Shown: in pieces, positions 34,932 to 41,392 of the stretch
Numbering within the stretch: position 1 is the first letter of the stretch
Layout: the number at the start of each line of letters is the position of its first letter
From: Escherichia phage LF82-4
Length of the DNA: 64,000 bases
Strand: one strand, 5' to 3'
Sequence record: PV660448
The notes under the pieces: model-generated
The model's database searches: none
Told to the model about the DNA's origin: nothing
What the model saw: the letters and a program-made list of their open reading frames with translations, nothing else
Program-made: the position numbers and the translations under genes

Positions 34932-35091
34932 ACATTTGCAATTCGGTGTGAGCGTCGGCCATCTTTTTCATAGCTCTGTTAATGTCGATGTCTCCATCTT
35001 CGCAACCATGAGCATTTTCCCAATCAGATACCGCATTAGCGTACTCTTCAATCAAAAACATCAACTTAGAAATCTTTTCTTTACGTGTCAT
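34912..35091 (-). CDS. small protein (59 aa), paralogue of 34354-34533
   Basis: ATG at 35091 directly after SD-bearing inverted-repeat arm. Confidence 0.45.
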   Translation of the reverse strand: MTRKEKISKLMFLIEEYANAVSDWENAHGCEDGDIDINRAMKKMADAHTELQMYVNEIM

Positions 35092-35095
35092 AACG

Positions 35096-35147
35096 TTCTC
35101 CTCTAGTAAGTAAGGTCTACTATAACACAACCTGAGGAGAAGTAAAC
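35096..35147 (-). promoter_or_regulatory. promoter-early stem-loop with SD in 3' arm (8-bp inverted repeat TTCTCCTC/GAGGAGAA flanking TATAGT)
   Basis: minus strand GTTTAC TTCTCCTCAGGTTGTGT TATAGT ...CTAGAGGAGAACGTT ATG. Confidence 0.55.
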
Positions 35148-35155
35148 TGCTAAAT

Positions 35156-35186
35156 GCAAAAAAGCCCCAACCTTTCGGAAGGGGCT
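35156..35186 (-). terminator. intrinsic terminator, copy 1 of 3 identical hairpins
   Basis: minus strand AGCCCCUUCCGAAAGGUUGGGGCU followed by UUUUUUG; 5 nt after stop of 35191-35748. Confidence 0.6.
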
Positions 35187-35190
35187 TTGA

Positions 35191-35748
35191 TTAGTTTTTG
35201 TAATATCGTAAAGGGTTGATATGGAATGAAAGCATTGCGCGTGGAATAGGACGTCTCAAAAGACTCTTAAGTTTCCAACCACAGTAAACACGCAGATAAA
35301 ATGTAATACCACCAACCTTAAGATAAGGTATAGCAGCGAATAATCCCCATGCAGACTCGTTCCAAACTAAAAGATATCCATGATGTGCTGGGTCAGGAGA
35401 TCCTGATTTAGTTTCGGCGTTGCCTTTATAGTGCCATTTTGATGAAGCTTCGCGACCTAAAACATGATACGAAAAATTATATGCTTTGTTGCGCCATAAC
35501 CAAGCTACGCGTTGAGCATATTTACCTATAACAGGAATTTTACGTATTTTAGACCAACGTTCAACATGGCCACGGTCACCATCGATAGGATTATCGTAAG
35601 TCATCATCCAGTCAAAGCCATAAGGTAGTTTACCGGTTTTTTCACTATGGAATGGAACTACAAATGGTGCTAGAATAATTGCTAAAATCGCTGCGATCCA
35701 ATCTATAGGAACAAGAACAACCCAACTTACATATTTTAAAAATTTCAT
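35191..35748 (-). CDS. membrane-anchored protein (185 aa), late-promoter driven
   Basis: N-terminal TM helix; TATAAATA late promoter 25 nt upstream; AGAGAGGA RBS. Confidence 0.6.
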   Translation of the reverse strand: MKFLKYVSWVVLVPIDWIAAILAIILAPFVVPFHSEKTGKLPYGFDWMMTYDNPIDGDRGHVERWSKIRKIPVIGKYAQRVAWLWRNKAYNFSYHVLGREASSKWHYKGNAETKSGSPDPAHHGYLLVWNESAWGLFAAIPYLKVGGITFYLRVYCGWKLKSLLRRPIPRAMLSFHINPLRYYKN

Positions 35749-35772
35749 ATATCCTCTCTTAGTTTACAAGGA

Positions 35773-35780
35773 TATTTATA
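35773..35780 (-). promoter_or_regulatory. late promoter TATAAATA
   Basis: exact T4 late consensus on minus strand, 25 nt upstream of ATG at 35748. Confidence 0.6.
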
Positions 35781-35809
35781 CAAAAAGCCCCAACCTTTCG
35801 GAAGGGGCT
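35781..35809 (-). terminator. intrinsic terminator, copy 2 of 3 identical hairpins
   Basis: same 24-bp hairpin plus U-tract, 7 nt after rI stop. Confidence 0.6.
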
Positions 35810-35815
35810 AGTAAA

Positions 35816-36118
35816 TTAGATAGATGTAGGCTCTAATTTTATTTTCATGAACTCGGCAAATTGTCTGGCGGTTTTTATGCCTTGTTCATGACATTCAAAT
35901 GCATCATCACAGGGGCTATTTTTGTAATGCTTTGCCATATACTTATAGAATTTTTCAGAGTTCTCGACATTTTGAATTTCAAACAAAGTATATACGTTTT
36001 TAATCCCTGATTCCATAAAGTTATCAAAGTATGGGTCAATATGTGCAGTACCAACGATAGGAGTTGTTGCTGCAAAAAACCCCAGCATCGCCATGACAGC
36101 TATCGCTCTTAAGGCCAT
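35816..36118 (-). CDS. rI: lysis inhibition regulator (periplasmic, signal-anchored)
   Basis: 100 aa; MALRAIAVMAMLGFFAATTPIVG signal; ...DPYFDNFMESGIKNVYTLFE... resembles T4 RI as recalled. Confidence 0.85.
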   Translation of the reverse strand: MALRAIAVMAMLGFFAATTPIVGTAHIDPYFDNFMESGIKNVYTLFEIQNVENSEKFYKYMAKHYKNSPCDDAFECHEQGIKTARQFAEFMKIKLEPTSI

Positions 36119-36130
36119 ATAGGCCTCCTG

Positions 36131-36343
36131 TTAATTTTGGCCAGTATTTATTTTTCGCCTTTGGACGGCCTTAACATCTGTGAGGTATTTTTCCAGCTTG
36201 CGCTTGCGTGTATAATCAGCTTTAGAACCAGTTTGACGGATATCCTCGTTTAAATGAGAAATAGAATGTCCTAATTCTCTTCGGATTTCATCCAATTGGG
36301 TTACAGTAAGATTACGAAGTTGTCTTTCGTTTAATTGCTGCAT
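36131..36343 (-). CDS. hypothetical protein (rI.1-like)
   Basis: 70 aa; late promoter TATAAATA at 36368-36375. Confidence 0.55.
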
Positions 36344-36367
36344 ATATACCTCTTGGTTAGATATTAG

Positions 36368-36375
36368 TATTTATA
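36368..36375 (-). promoter_or_regulatory. late promoter TATAAATA (inside 3' end of tk)
   Basis: exact late consensus on minus strand, 25 nt upstream of ATG at 36343. Confidence 0.55.
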
Positions 36376-36952
36376 ACAACCCTGTCAAATCATTCCAATG
36401 CTTCCGGCATAATGACACATATCTATCGGTATCACCAATTTCAATTTGACTGCCATCTGTAATTGGAAGTCCGTCTTCCGTGACTCTAGCTACCATTGTG
36501 GCCTTTTTACCACAATGACAGACACCTTTAAGTTCAACAAGCTTATCGGCAATAGCCATTAATGCTTGAGAACCTTCAAATAGATTACCTTTAAAATCTG
36601 TTCGTAGTCCATATGCCATTACCGGCACATTGTATACGTCAACAATACGACTAAGTTGATACACCTTTTCAGTAGTTAAGAACTGAGCTTCGTCAACAAA
36701 TACGCAGTGAATATCCTTTTGTGCTGCAGCCCATTTATAGAATTCAAAGATATCCATGTCTTTTGTAATTATATTGGCATCCTGACGAATACCAATACGA
36801 GAGACTATTTCACCTTTTGAATTACGAGTATCAATAGCCGGTTTAAGAACTAATACACCCATGCCACGTTCTTTATAGTTATGTGCGGCAGTAAGTAATG
36901 AAGCAGACTTACCAGCGTTCATAGCGGCATAGGTAAAAATTAAACTAGCCAT
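36371..36952 (-). CDS. tk: thymidine kinase
   Basis: 193 aa; P-loop NAGKSASLL, C-terminal Zn motif CHCG...C; T4 synteny. Confidence 0.93.
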   Translation of the reverse strand: MASLIFTYAAMNAGKSASLLTAAHNYKERGMGVLVLKPAIDTRNSKGEIVSRIGIRQDANIITKDMDIFEFYKWAAAQKDIHCVFVDEAQFLTTEKVYQLSRIVDVYNVPVMAYGLRTDFKGNLFEGSQALMAIADKLVELKGVCHCGKKATMVARVTEDGLPITDGSQIEIGDTDRYVSLCRKHWNDLTGLL

Positions 36953-37142
36953 AAGAGTCCTTAGTTAAATTTTCTAAATATGTTTCTAAATCATTTTCAG
37001 CTTTATTGATAGATTTTACTAATTCGTAGTATGTTTCGGCATCTCCATATTCAGAAGATATTTCAAAAGACAAATCCTTTTCTAAACTAATAATTTCACC
37101 AACTAAAAATAATATTTCGTTCTTTTGTTCGCGAGTAATCAT
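36945..37142 (-). CDS. hypothetical protein (tk.x-like)
   Basis: 65 aa. Confidence 0.5.
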   Translation of the reverse strand: MITREQKNEILFLVGEIISLEKDLSFEISSEYGDAETYYELVKSINKAENDLETYLENLTKDSYG

Positions 37143-37330
37143 AATGAATTTATATAATCAATAAGTTCTTGCTCTTTATCGTCAAAATCTTTACACAGTT
37201 CTTCGTATTCGTCAGTATTAAAAGGACCGCATTCATTACAAACTTTTTCCAATTCGCTATTTTTATCCATAACTTCGTGGATAAGAGAAAAGAGTTTGTC
37301 TTTTTGTTCTTTACTTAAACTCATAACCAT
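37139..37330 (-). CDS. hypothetical protein (tk.x-like)
   Basis: 63 aa; N-terminal region similar to previous ORF (possible duplication). Confidence 0.5.
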   Translation of the reverse strand: MVMSLSKEQKDKLFSLIHEVMDKNSELEKVCNECGPFNTDEYEELCKDFDDKEQELIDYINSL

Positions 37331-37548
37331 GTCACCTTTAAACAGTATTCTTCTACATGCTGTTTACGACCTTTCTTATCAATAAAGGTATATTCAACGA
37401 ATGTTCCAATGTAGTCTTTATCGACATCATGTGGACTATTAATTGGACATTTAGTACGACAAATGCGTTCCCATTGACGAATAATTACTGCTTTATTTTT
37501 AGGATCAAACGGATGTGGGTAATGCACATTCATAATAATGGTTCCCAA
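37321..37548 (-). CDS. hypothetical protein (75 aa)
   Basis: track ORF. Confidence 0.5.
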   Translation of the reverse strand: MGTIIMNVHYPHPFDPKNKAVIIRQWERICRTKCPINSPHDVDKDYIGTFVEYTFIDKKGRKQHVEEYCLKVTWL

Positions 37549-38027
37549 TCAACAATCACAATTTCTAGTTTAGTGGAATATGTATCAAGAATTTCTTCAA
37601 TGATATCCCAGTTTCCACCACCTATACCTGCACCAATTCTTGGCATGTAAATCACAGGCTTTGCTATCTTATTCTTTCCGAATTTATTTAATTCTATTAT
37701 ACAATTCATTAAAGCAGAGTACTCAAAATTAGGTCCGGGCTCAAACTGTGTATAAAGATTAAAGCAATAAGCTTTATGGGTCTTAAAATATTTTTCATAA
37801 ACCGAATAGGAACCGAGTTTAGACTCGTCTCCGAATTCGGTTTGAAGTTTATCGGCTTCTAAAATTTTTGGATAAGCCTTTGCTAATTGTCCTGCTACAC
37901 CAGCGCCCATTGTATGAAAACAATTGCACCCATGAGCAATATTATTACCTTTAGAAAACAGGGCGACAATATCGCCCTTGATATAGTTTTTAATCACTTG
38001 CTGCAAGTCCTCTAGTATAAGAGTCAA
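37530..38027 (-). CDS. macro-domain protein (ADP-ribose binding/hydrolase fold)
   Basis: motifs NNIAHGCNCFHTMGAGVAG and IGAGIGGGNW resemble macro-domain signatures; start is non-ATG (TTG at 38027 or GTG at 37997 with GAGGA RBS). Confidence 0.6.
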   Translation of the reverse strand: MTLILEDLQQVIKNYIKGDIVALFSKGNNIAHGCNCFHTMGAGVAGQLAKAYPKILEADKLQTEFGDESKLGSYSVYEKYFKTHKAYCFNLYTQFEPGPNFEYSALMNCIIELNKFGKNKIAKPVIYMPRIGAGIGGGNWDIIEEILDTYSTKLEIVIVDWEPLL

Positions 38028-38337
38028 CTAGACGGTCCACCATAGAATTGCATGCTGCCTTATCTTTAGGTTCCGCCACCGAGCATTCTAATATTTGCCA
38101 TTTTTTATAGTATCTTTTAATTAAGGTAGACGCCTTGAACCTACTAGACGCCCCATCTTTTTCTCCGTCTTTATATGCATATAACAATTTTTGTGAAAAA
38201 TCTACTTTACACTCTTGACTTTTACCACAATAATCAGACGCCGTTCTGTTTGTATACTCCGTTACATCAGTATATGTAGTATTAGCAAGAGCGTTAAATG
38301 AAACCAAGCCAACTATTAAAGCCAACATTTTGGTCAT
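37990..38337 (-). CDS. secreted protein with signal peptide (115 aa)
   Basis: MTKMLALIVGLVSFNALA signal. Confidence 0.55.
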   Translation of the reverse strand: MTKMLALIVGLVSFNALANTTYTDVTEYTNRTASDYCGKSQECKVDFSQKLLYAYKDGEKDGASSRFKASTLIKRYYKKWQILECSVAEPKDKAACNSMVDRLVDSYTRGLAASD

Positions 38338-38876
38338 TCTTTTATTTCCAGTAGTTTATTTGATTTAAGGTAATTAGCCTTTTCTAGGACTTCAGAAGCA
38401 TATTTACTTCCAGCACTTGTCTTCCATCCAGCATTATATGAGGATATGGCTTTCCTTATATCCCCGTTATGTATATTTAACCAATAAGAAAATTCGATAT
38501 AAGCCCATCTTGCTGAATTAGACCGCTTAGATAGCATTTTCTTAATTTGGGCATCAGTCATATTATAACCAAGCTGGTTAATTCTTGCCCTCATTGTTGG
38601 TAGATAATTTTGGAACATTCCATACGCATGGTGACCTTTCTTATCTTTAAGATTAATACCGGCAGATGATTCCTGCCATAGTATTGCGGCCATTATGTAT
38701 CCAAGTCCTTTCTTATGCATATTTTCATGCGTTTTAAATTTTCCATCCTTAGAAAACTGTTCCCCAAACTGATAAGCATAATTCAAGTTATCGAGTTGGA
38801 CATTACTAAAAGTATGCTCGGAGCTATGTGCTGATAACGAAAGAGCAAATAGACCAGCGAGTAGTGCTTTTCTCAT
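38334..38876 (-). CDS. periplasmic lytic-transglycosylase-like protein (SLT domain)
   Basis: signal peptide; ILWQESS catalytic-Glu motif, GMFQ and SYNAG motifs. Confidence 0.6.
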   Translation of the reverse strand: MRKALLAGLFALSLSAHSSEHTFSNVQLDNLNYAYQFGEQFSKDGKFKTHENMHKKGLGYIMAAILWQESSAGINLKDKKGHHAYGMFQNYLPTMRARINQLGYNMTDAQIKKMLSKRSNSARWAYIEFSYWLNIHNGDIRKAISSYNAGWKTSAGSKYASEVLEKANYLKSNKLLEIKE

Positions 38877-38884
38877 GTTTACCT

Positions 38885-39343
38885 CTAGATTTTAATCACT
38901 GCTTTAGAAGCTTTTCCTGGTAGTCGTTTACTGTTAATAATAGCCATTCTGCATTGAAGAGTCTTCATTTTGAATGCTGGATTTTCGCGACAAACTGTAA
39001 GTCCTAACCAAAGATTTCCATCAGTTATTTCTAAACGGCCTGGGCGATATTCGACACCTTCGACAAAATCTTCATCAACATCTGGACGTGCCGGCATTGA
39101 TAAAAATTCTGCAACTTCTTTAGCATGATTTTTTACTTTATGAAATAATTCAAAAACGTAATTCTCATCTATTTCTCTCTGGATGGCACGATCTAAGAGA
39201 TGTTGAGAATACTTGATATGAAAGCCTGGTAGTCCAAGAGACTTTGCAGCATCTTTTATACCGGCATTTATTTTGCGGAACTCCGTTTCAAAGATTCGAC
39301 GGAGTTTATTACGGCGGATAAAAACTTCCGAATTGATAGTCAT
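38885..39343 (-). CDS. regB: endoribonuclease RegB
   Basis: 152 aa from ATG 39343 (MTINSEVFIRRNKLRR...); matches T4 RegB as recalled; track start is TTG. Confidence 0.85.
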   Translation of the reverse strand: MTINSEVFIRRNKLRRIFETEFRKINAGIKDAAKSLGLPGFHIKYSQHLLDRAIQREIDENYVFELFHKVKNHAKEVAEFLSMPARPDVDEDFVEGVEYRPGRLEITDGNLWLGLTVCRENPAFKMKTLQCRMAIINSKRLPGKASKAVIKI

Positions 39344-39350
39344 TTTGATT

Positions 39351-39400
39351 TCTCCTCTAGTTGACAAGTCTATAGTAACACAACTAGAGGAGAAGTAAAC
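39351..39400 (-). promoter_or_regulatory. promoter-early stem-loop with SD in 3' arm (10-bp inverted repeat TCTCCTCTAG/CTAGAGGAGA) upstream of regB
   Basis: minus strand GTTTAC TTCTCCTCTAGTTGTGT TACTAT ...CTAGAGGAGAAATCAAA ATG. Confidence 0.55.
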
Positions 39401-39699
39401 TACTCTTTGAAAGGAATTAACTTTTTAACTGCTTTAGATACTTCGTCACGAACCTGATGGAAGTTCTTGAGCTGTTCAAGGCGTTGTTCGTAATACGCAA
39501 TCTCATCTTCTTCAAGACAATCGTCAGCGTCTTCTTTCAGATATGCCTTGTACTCATTAAAGAGGGCCCATAGGCGGTTCTCAAAGTCATCAAGGCTTTG
39601 AATTTTCTTGTGCTTCGGAACAAGGCCAAAAGGATTGCTTTCAGTTATGCGTCTAGATGCTTCATAATGAGTTCCAAAGCCTGATAGGATTTGAGCCAT
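39400..39699 (-). CDS. hypothetical protein (vs.3-like position)
   Basis: 99 aa; ATG start. Confidence 0.55.
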
Positions 39700-39965
39700 T
39701 AGTATTTTTCCTCAGGTCGAAATACTGCACGACAGGCCCACATGCTGGCTTCTTTTAGATGTTGCTTAGCATACTTAAGAGCCTGTACTGCATCCATATC
39801 TTCTTTGGTTTGTTGCTCTGTTTCATTTTCTTTCAAGATATATGCTTCTTCAATCAGAGCATCAAACAACAATCCAAGACGGACTTCTGCATCTTTAATA
39901 GCGTTCACTTTACCGATTTTATCGTCGGTATGCGGCTTGTAGCCTTTGATGTCTTCAATCGACAT
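39699..39965 (-). CDS. hypothetical protein (88 aa; position of T4 vs.4)
   Basis: ATG at 39965; longer track ORF N-terminus is an out-of-context extension. Confidence 0.5.
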
Positions 39966-40179
39966 AAGGAATTTCCTCATCGGTGACAAGGTCATATTCG
40001 ACCAATTGGATAGGCTCGTTAATACCATATCCACGTACAGTGATATCGGTTGTCGGATATTTTCCAGTAATATCACCCATTCTAAATGCTTCAGTGAATG
40101 ATTGCTCACCTGAGCAACTAAACCAGGCGGCAAAACATTTTAAAACATCTTCAGACCCTTCTATAATCAATTTAGCCAT
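39955..40179 (-). CDS. hypothetical protein (74 aa)
   Basis: ATG start; 1-nt overlap with GrcA-like stop. Confidence 0.5.
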   Translation of the reverse strand: MAKLIIEGSEDVLKCFAAWFSCSGEQSFTEAFRMGDITGKYPTTDITVRGYGINEPIQLVEYDLVTDEEIPYVD

Positions 40180-40541
40180 TATAGACTCTCAGTAAAGGTA
40201 CGAGCGATAACGTCGCGCTGCTGTTCCGGAGTCAGAGAGTTAAAGCGAACTGCATAACCGGATACACGAATGGTCAGCTGAGGATATTTTTCCGGATGCT
40301 TAACTGCATCTTCCAGAGTTTCACGACGCAGAACGTTAACGTTCAGGTGTTGACCACCTTCAATTTTAACTTTAGGTTGATGTTCAATTTCAATTTCACG
40401 GGCATGTAAACCGTAGAAAATTTCCGGGTCTACAATAGCGTCTTCTTTAAAAGTCTTAGAGACGATAATCCGGGCTTGAGTACCATCTTCAAAATAAATA
40501 GTGCCTTTATGTACACCTTCAAGAATTTGATATGCTTTCAT
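40179..40541 (-). CDS. autonomous glycyl radical cofactor (GrcA/YfiD-like)
   Basis: 120 aa; C-terminal ~60 aa (…[59 protein letters not shown]) match E. coli GrcA as recalled incl. glycyl-radical site RVSGYAV; 3' half visibly GC-richer. Confidence 0.8.
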
Positions 40542-40547
40542 ATAACC

Positions 40548-40856
40548 TCAATTAGAAAATAAATTTATCCAAGTTTTTTCTTTAATCAAAAATGGGTCGG
40601 AATTAAACGCCATTAAACTTTGAGTGATTAATCCCTTAAACGGCCCATCAATAAATTCCATTTTGAAATGCGGAATACTAGTCATCAACCGTGCATTAGG
40701 AGCAGTACAAAGAACCTGCTGCCCCGCGAAAGGACCTTTAGTCAAACTGTATCGTTTAGGTTTAAAATGGTAAATCTCATAATTTTCTACAAGAGCCCTT
40801 TTATTGCATACTGGGCTGTTATAACAATATTCAAAAACTTCAATAGTGGTCATCAT
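40548..40856 (-). CDS. hypothetical protein (102 aa)
   Basis: track ORF. Confidence 0.5.
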   Translation of the reverse strand: MMTTIEVFEYCYNSPVCNKRALVENYEIYHFKPKRYSLTKGPFAGQQVLCTAPNARLMTSIPHFKMEFIDGPFKGLITQSLMAFNSDPFLIKEKTWINLFSN

Positions 40857-41392
40857 TGCATTCCAATCACAAAAAATTGAGGACGAGCATTACCGCCGAT
40901 GCAATATTTGCTTTTGCAACAGTGTTGGACTGTTTTAATATGGACATTGTAAATCTTATCCATATCAGGAGCTTTAATAGGCTCGTCAATTATGTACAGA
41001 ATACGAGAAAGCGTTAATCCACGGAATTTAGAACCTTCATTGCCAATAAAACTACGGACAGAATCGGTAAATAAACGGAATCGAATATCATCGCTAGAAT
41101 AACGAGAAAATTCTTTTTTAATGTTGCCAGCAGAAATTTTAGCATAGGCTGAAGTATTAGAAAGAACAATAACTGTTCCACCATCATACAGCCAATTAGC
41201 AGCAAAGTTAGTCACAGCAATTGATTTACCTGATTGTCGGCCGCCGTCTAAACGAAGTGTACAGTACTGCTTGAGTACGTCTTCAAACGGTGGGATATAA
41301 CCGTTCTTACAAATTTCTTCTACTCTAGCATCAGAATGGTGTGTAAAAGCATTCATCAGGGATAGATAAGGTCCAGTTAAAAATGTTCTCAT
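40853..41392 (-). CDS. hypothetical protein (179 aa) with P-loop-like GGRQSGKS
   Basis: ATG start; Walker-A-like motif. Confidence 0.55.
   Translation of the reverse strand: MRTFLTGPYLSLMNAFTHHSDARVEEICKNGYIPPFEDVLKQYCTLRLDGGRQSGKSIAVTNFAANWLYDGGTVIVLSNTSAYAKISAGNIKKEFSRYSSDDIRFRLFTDSVRSFIGNEGSKFRGLTLSRILYIIDEPIKAPDMDKIYNVHIKTVQHCCKSKYCIGGNARPQFFVIGMQ

Follow-up and report, generated by a model that had tools for sequence, protein, structure and literature searches.

What does the reading frame at 37530..38027 (-) encode, from which codon is it translated, and what would a phage use the product for? The window, by which we mean the whole stretch of 64,000 nucleotides of Escherichia phage LF82-4 analysed here (PV660448), carries this frame together with the two motifs, ...NNIAHGCNCFHTMGAGVAG... 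and ...IGAGIGGGNW..., from which a sequence-only reading had proposed a macro-domain protein with a non-ATG start in the tk-regB region. Over positions 36300-39500, the DNA is 100% identical to that of Escherichia phage LF82-9 (Mosigvirus, RB69 group) and approximately 97% identical to that of many relatives, which identifies the window as Mosigvirus (RB69-like) on nucleotide comparison. The proposed location is correct, since the gene sits between tk (36371..36952) on one side and regB (about 38885..39343) on the other, as in T4 and RB69. The order rI.1, tk, three small genes, the gene of interest, vs, vs.1, regB is also the same in both of these phages. The upstream neighbour is vs (37990..38337 (-), annotated as valyl-tRNA synthetase modifier and placed by annotations and alignment to T4 Vs), and downstream lies a tk.3-like small gene (37321..37533 (-), as annotated in LF82-9), whose ATG overlaps the TGA of the gene of interest as ATGA.

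The encoded protein aligns with T4 Tk.4 (NP_049723) without gaps over 155/155 amino acids at 85% identity. This full-length identity, together with the conserved order regB-vs.1-vs-tk.4-tk.3...tk in LF82-9, RB69 and T4, places it in the T4 Tk.4 orthologous group, and the gene can be identified as the syntenic Mosigvirus ortholog of T4 tk.4 (adfM). It was already known under these names, although the initial reading had not recognised it as tk.4. With the limits annotated in LF82-9 and RB69, tk.4 extends over 37530..37997 (-), from a GTG start to a TGA stop (37532..37530), and encodes a 155-aa single-macrodomain protein. The RB69-group ortholog is intact, with all conserved residues present, and a tblastn search revealed relatives in 2793 phage records from many host genera.

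An origin in a bacterial toxin-antitoxin locus was considered and rejected: two homologs (P0107 and P0115) that carry the label of bacterial MAG proteins are located on short phage-like contigs without darT, with SLT, a T4 Rnl1-type ligase and a Dda-like helicase as phage-like neighbours. A contig with a Cetobacterium MAG label (L087, 69-3159) carries a Tk.4-family macro gene beside genes for a DUF4326 protein, a T4 Rnl1-type RNA ligase and a Dda/PIF1-like helicase, and looks like a phage fragment rather than a bacterial locus.

The macro-domain assignment was confirmed by profile search, with Pfam Macro (PF01661) matching at 28.1 bits (cut-off 22, E = 2.2e-6) over profile positions 2-117 of 118. 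The AlphaFold2 model, for which 76 homologs were used (pLDDT 95.4, pTM 0.91), contains six strands and five helices in a three-layer alpha/beta/alpha macro fold, with two conserved glycine-rich loops, HGCNCFHTMGAG and PRIGAGIGGGNW, which are predicted to bind ADP-ribose. The top Foldseek matches in the PDB, all with a probability of 1.00, were TARG1, Poa1p, BT1257 and the DarG macrodomains, and the nearest solved structures by sequence were BT1257, yeast Poa1p, SCO6735, human TARG1 and the DarG macrodomains. Profile and model identify the protein as a macrodomain, and these comparisons indicate that it is a stand-alone member of the ALC1/TARG1 class. Among the 76 homologs, G33, A35, D49, G62, N80, Y82, T83, Q84, P119, I121, G122 and G124 are invariant, whereas H22, G23, N25, C26, M30, G31 and W130 are near-invariant.

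The T4 ortholog suggests what such a domain may do for the phage. A study of 2006 already assigned the tk.4 orthologs to the A1pp (macro) domain proteins (PMC1524935), and the T2 Tk.4 protein has been detected in infected cells (10.64898/2026.06.19.733364). Previously, T4 and T2 without adfN, as well as T4 without both adfA and adfN, were found to be still resistant to DarTG2, and a further factor was predicted (PMC11825919). In a preprint of November 2025, a T4 transposon library was screened on a DarTG2 host with tk.4 as the sole gene to emerge, and a clean T4 tk.4 knockout was DarTG2-sensitive; the gene was renamed adfM (anti-DarT factor Macrodomain), and this evidence is genetic and concerns one DarTG2 system (10.1101/2025.11.20.689424). 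These results, obtained by others for T4 only, bear out the initial suggestion that the macrodomain could reverse the action of DarTG, and by analogy with its ortholog the window protein probably has the same role. T4 Tk.4 shares with it the site between vs and tk.3, the N-terminus, the invariant residues and a hairpin in the 5' coding region, and differs in having ATG in place of GTG as a start codon and K126 in place of G126 in the IG(G/K)GNW loop.

The proposed role is that of an orphan antitoxin, in which the stand-alone macrodomain most likely takes DarT2-added ADP-ribose off the thymidines of single-stranded phage DNA, and phage replication would then proceed in DarTG2-carrying hosts. 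The ligand would be bound through the two glycine-rich loops, H22...A35 and P119...W130. The protein itself is not a DarG. Its sole match in PADLOC and NCBIfam is the macrodomain part of DarG; full DarG (NCBIfam NF048014, cut-off 250 bits) scored 30.7 bits, with only model positions 4-146 of 338 matched, and no darT is present beside the gene, whose neighbours are vs and tk.3. The DarG macrodomains from T. aquaticus (5M31/5M3E) and M. tuberculosis (5M3I) share its fold and belong to its class (Foldseek E about 1e-7, TM about 0.75), DarG N22 is the equivalent of N25, and the biological target, judging from T4, would be the same. In contrast, DarG has a catalytic K80 where the Tk.4 ortholog has Gln84, as well as a C-terminal DarT-binding domain, which is missing from the Tk.4 ortholog, and there is no paired toxin gene.

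This domain architecture also bears on the possibility that DarT2 is neutralised mainly by stoichiometric binding or inhibition rather than by hydrolysis. The phage factors AdfA and AdfB act through DarT binding, and in vitro the catalytically dead SCO6735 Q85A is still a DarT inhibitor, with a stronger effect than DarG K80A or TARG1 K84A (PMC9411070). However, the match of the Tk.4 ortholog is limited to positions 4-146 of the DarG models of 329-338 positions, without the C-terminal DarT-binding domain, and no inhibition of DarT was seen with the isolated TaqDarG macrodomain carrying K80A (PMC5179494). Furthermore, the ADP-ribose-binding and active-site residues are all invariant family-wide, pointing to selection for catalysis. 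We therefore consider binding as the main mode of action highly unlikely and favour hydrolysis.

A phage-encoded stand-alone macrodomain countering DarTG2 has also been described under the same name in the chimallivirus PhiKZ. PhiKZ AdfM (gp104; L085, 12518-13006), an unrelated phage macrodomain, clears DNA in vitro of the ADP-ribose that DarT2 attaches and confers protection on the phage; the protein is made late and enters the phage nucleus by import (PMC13309987). This protein keeps the lysine (K78 in FPTKDNW) and matches the PADLOC DarG model with 133 bits, whereas the Tk.4 ortholog is Gln-type and scores 32.3 bits. Thus, the two proteins named AdfM in 2025-2026 belong to different sub-families, and the weakness of the Tk.4 match to the DarG models counts against the proposed role.

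The active site was delineated by conservation and by profile alignments. The first loop, H22-GCNCFHTMGAGV-A35 (37893..37934 (-)), is predicted to bind ADP-ribose on the basis of its conservation and of hhalign alignments to TARG1 and PhiKZ gp104. Its N25 (37923..37925) aligns with N23 of PhiKZ AdfM and with DarG N22, whose role has been described (PMC5179494). The second loop, P119-RIGAGIGGGN-W130 (37608..37643 (-)), which includes the invariant P119, I121, G122 and G124, is predicted to bind the diphosphate. An invariant strand end, N80-L-Y82-T83-Q84 (37746..37760 (-), with Q84 at 37746..37748), was located by conservation and by hhalign and hmmsearch alignments, and the invariance of Q84 among the 76 homologs extends to 36% identity. 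In the profile-profile alignment to human TARG1/OARD1, the top Foldseek match (hhalign probability 98.3%, 137 columns; TARG1 sequence checked against the PDB), Q84 aligns with the catalytic K84 and G126 with D125, so that the K84/D125 dyad of TARG1 is replaced by Q84/G126. In the hhalign alignment to PhiKZ gp104, Q84 falls on K78. The literature equates TaqDarG K80, a residue required for activity, with TARG1 K84 (PMC5179494); the equivalence of Q84 with DarG K80 rests on the alignments to TARG1 and PhiKZ gp104 combined with these published statements. Taken in this way, the correspondences indicate that the Tk.4 family is without the DarG/TARG1 catalytic lysine. TARG1 is also able to remove DarT-type dT-ADP-ribose (PMC8501950; PMC9411070).

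Glutamine at this position is found in two bacterial ALC1-like proteins, BT1257 from Bacteroides thetaiotaomicron and SCO6735 from Streptomyces coelicolor. Q84 aligns with the Gln of BT1257 in a common N-x-x-x-Q motif, and BT1257 is the best PDB match of the window protein (E = 2e-11 with the single sequence, 1.4e-17 with the family profile), with SCO6735 in seventh (E = 6.9e-5, single sequence) or eighth place (E = 9.9e-15, family profile). SCO6735 is a close structural homolog of BT1257, and its Gln85 sits at the lysine position, stated to be equivalent to K80/K84 (PMC9411070). The Q85A and Q85E substitutions abolished the hydrolysis of DarT-made dT-ADP-ribose, and SCO6735 rescues DarT toxicity without a lysine, for which the authors proposed a water-initiated mechanism (PMC9411070). 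Since Q84 falls on the Gln of BT1257 and Q85 of SCO6735 is needed for dT-ADP-ribose hydrolysis, Tk.4/AdfM probably works as a Gln-type hydrolase by analogy with these enzymes. Catalysis would most likely be of the SCO6735 type, lysine-independent and different from the catalytic-lysine route of DarG and TARG1, with the invariant Q84 and N25 positioning ADP-ribosyl-thymidine for attack by an activated water.

The likeness to these proteins is incomplete. SCO6735 and BT1257 are not phage-borne, whereas the Tk.4 family is, and identity amounts to about 25-30%. The loop following the Gln is 6 residues longer in BT1257 than in the Tk.4 family, where it has the length of the TARG1 loop; in SCO6735, the 'mobile loop' (about 5-6 residues longer) was linked by the authors to high DNA activity (PMC9411070). 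With this loop missing, Tk.4/AdfM is not a full member of the SCO6735/BT1257 subclass, and we go no further than to infer the SCO6735 mechanism for the phage protein. The absence of the canonical Lys and Asp also counts against the proposed role.

The same residues are relevant to a different function, that of a small-molecule hydrolase (ADP-ribose-1''-phosphate phosphatase or O-acetyl-ADP-ribose deacetylase) serving nucleotide or NAD-metabolite housekeeping and not defence evasion. The T4 RefSeq label for tk.4 is 'phosphatase; contains A1pp phosphatase motif', PHROG 335, which matches the window protein with E = 3.7e-66, is likewise named 'phosphatase', and several sources call homologs O-acetyl-ADP-ribose deacetylase. 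There is also similarity to yeast Poa1p (E about 6e-9), whose H23 and S30 align with H22 and T29 of Tk.4. However, the 'phosphatase' and A1pp labels are inherited from the domain name, the phenotype of the T4 knockout is specific to DarTG2 (10.1101/2025.11.20.689424), and the invariant NxYTQ motif fits the DNA-active SCO6735/BT1257 type, whereas Poa1p has Ser there in the HMMER alignment. ALC1-class dT-ADP-ribose hydrolases often cleave small substrates as well, and the two roles are compatible; housekeeping in place of anti-DarTG2 activity appears improbable.

T4-type phages carry three ADP-ribosyltransferases, and the macrodomain might instead reverse the ADP-ribosylation of protein or RNA, either by the phage's own Alt, ModA and ModB in tuning host take-over or by host defences such as CmdTAC. 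Alt and the Mod enzymes modify mainly arginine, which is an unusual macrodomain substrate, and we found nothing that links tk.4 to Alt or Mod, so that the reversal of the phage's own enzymes, which had been offered in the sequence-only reading as one of two options, is unsupported. Both TARG1 and SCO6735 are active on protein substrates too (PMC9411070), but CmdTAC is reported to block T-even phages robustly despite their tk.4 (PMC11618068), and among the reported conditions of the preprint a tk.4 phenotype was seen only with DarTG2 (10.1101/2025.11.20.689424). A role in protein or RNA de-modification is accordingly very improbable, and removal of DarT2-added ADP-ribose from DNA is the function that we prefer.

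The start codon was resolved by comparison with relatives. The initial reading had restricted the choice to GTG 37997 and TTG 38027, and our analysis identifies the true start as the GTG (37995..37997 (-)), which is homologous to the T4 tk.4 ATG, aligns with it codon for codon (MIKNYIKGDI vs MIVKYIKGDI) and is the start in the public annotations of LF82-9 and RB69. In the 50 relatives that align from residue 1 onwards, the start codon is ATG in 45/50 and GTG in 5/50, with an M-I-x-x opening in all. The TTG (38025..38027 (-)) was discarded as the conserved start because relatives carry a TAG between the two codons: L004 and L005 (97% identical) have an in-frame TAG two codons before the GTG, and in T4 an in-frame TAG immediately precedes the ATG. 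The extension from the TTG consists of vs coding sequence. The first in-frame ATG, Met30, is excluded as the start of the domain because it lies downstream of the near-invariant H22, G23 and N25; its use would remove the conserved strands beta1-beta2 together with H22 and N25. Given ATG in 45 of the 50 start-aligned relatives, the GTG seems to be a substitution peculiar to this lineage, at a site that otherwise carries ATG, and the notion of 'deliberately weak' expression finds no support in it.

The GAGGA noticed earlier upstream of the GTG is a Shine-Dalgarno-like element located at 38008..38012 (-), inside the 3' end of vs and 10 nt upstream of the GTG, which is a long spacing. In T4 and in most T4-like relatives, this position is likewise taken by (G)AGG(A/T), and the distance in T4 is similar. 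The start of tk.4 and the stop of vs (TAA, 37992..37990) overlap by 8 nt, GTGATTAA (37990..37997 (-)), whereas this junction is ATGA in T4 and TAAATG in other relatives. The overlap takes the place of the T4 ATGA because the C-terminus of Vs (37990-38012 (-), compared with L003 3887-3910) is read in another frame relative to tk.4 than in T4 (RGLAASD-stop vs RGLSTR-stop). Judging by this overlap, coupling of tk.4 translation to vs is plausible, and the protein, translated from GTG 37997, would probably be in part coupled to vs within the overlapping run regB-vs.1-vs-tk.4-...-tk.

Several observations were made on the upstream genes themselves. The N-terminus of Vs resembles a Sec signal peptide (MTKMLALIVGLVSFNALA followed by N), four Cys residues are conserved with T4 Vs, and vs.1 also begins in a signal-like manner (MRKALLAGLFALSLSAHS). 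The signal-like N-terminus and the Cys residues of Vs fit an exported protein better than the annotated cytoplasmic valyl-tRNA synthetase modifier. In the HIDEN-SEQ preprint, vs was conditionally important in minimal medium (10.1101/2025.11.20.689424).

A terminator scan revealed a hairpin within the 5' coding region of tk.4 at 37951..37978 (-), composed of a G+C-rich stem of 8 bp, AGGGCGAT-ATT-GTCGCCCT (37978..37960), and a T-rich tail, GTTTTCTAA, with a folding energy of about -13 kcal/mol. The stem occupies codons 7-13 and, together with the tail, the element spans codons 7-16, 20 nt after the GTG. The same hairpin is found in T4, in several T4-like clades (55-61% protein identity) and in distant phage contigs of 84-165 kb (L039-L042, 40-44% identity), and is absent from other clades. 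Compensatory changes were identified in two groups of relatives, namely AAG/CTG to AAA/TTR, both synonymous, in L018 and L022, and GGC/GCC to GGA/TCC in L040-L042. Across 33 sequences, the stem is paired in 75% of cells (28-68% in slid controls), and none of 500 shuffles reached its percentage paired or its covariation score. In 7/8 lineages tested, 0.2-4% of synonymous recodings folded as stably as the native sequence, and rare stem codons (AAG, GGC, GTC, GCC and CTG) are kept in 28/36 cases against 33/139 elsewhere in the gene, comparisons that are not independent of each other. The T-run is largely forced by conserved Leu-Phe residues. A 'terminator' is annotated at the same site in Yersinia phage fPS-65.

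These patterns identify the hairpin as a terminator-like element, maintained by the retention of rare codons and by compensatory changes. Possible roles are termination or attenuation of the regB-vs transcript, stabilisation of a 3' end and Hfq binding. Together with the GTG start, the hairpin could mean low expression in this lineage, a point against the proposed anti-DarTG2 role. An Rfam search of positions 37300-38500 gave nothing meaningful (MicX, 16 bits against a gathering score of 75), and a literature search for T4 terminators in the tk.4 region gave nothing specific. Sites with a terminator-like hairpin and T-run are about three times as frequent over positions 35000-41000 as in shuffled sequences (11 vs 3.5 +/- 2.0).

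No convincing sigma-70-type promoter was found just upstream of tk.4, and promoter-like matches at 35-41 kb are not commoner than in shuffles (17 vs 21.8). Inside tk.4, a MotA-box-like TGCTTTA is followed by a perfect TATAAT (37716..37696 (-)), and this pattern is enriched across the window (33 matches, 19.9 expected). The site was rejected as a T4 middle promoter, its spacer looking too short for what we take to be the consensus spacing of these promoters.

Overall, we assign a probability of roughly 0.78 to the reading that the window gene encodes the anti-DarTG2 orphan antitoxin of the RB69 group, a Gln-type macrodomain with a GTG start and partial coupling to vs. The significance of this gene is already in the literature for T4 and the increment is small, with the Gln84 active site and the conserved 5' hairpin seeming to be the only unreported points. 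Two tentative extensions, which we hold to be possible but less likely than not, are that the T4-type AdfM represents a third DarT2-reversing design, with the Gln site of SCO6735 and the short loop of DarG and TARG1, and that the 5' hairpin is a functional RNA element. In the first case, lysine-independent DNA de-ADP-ribosylation would be present in a phage accessory gene that ranks among the most widespread. In the second, an intragenic attenuator or terminator, or an Hfq/sRNA-binding 3' end, would close the regB-vs transcript and meter adfM expression, to which the GTG start in the RB69 lineage would add. T-even phages have a layered anti-DarTG repertoire, with AdfA and AdfN directed against DarTG1 and Tk.4/AdfM against DarTG2. 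Recognition of the gene helps to predict which DarTG2-positive E. coli, for example clinical isolates, therapeutic T4-like phages can infect; LF82 is the strain on which the identical phage was isolated.
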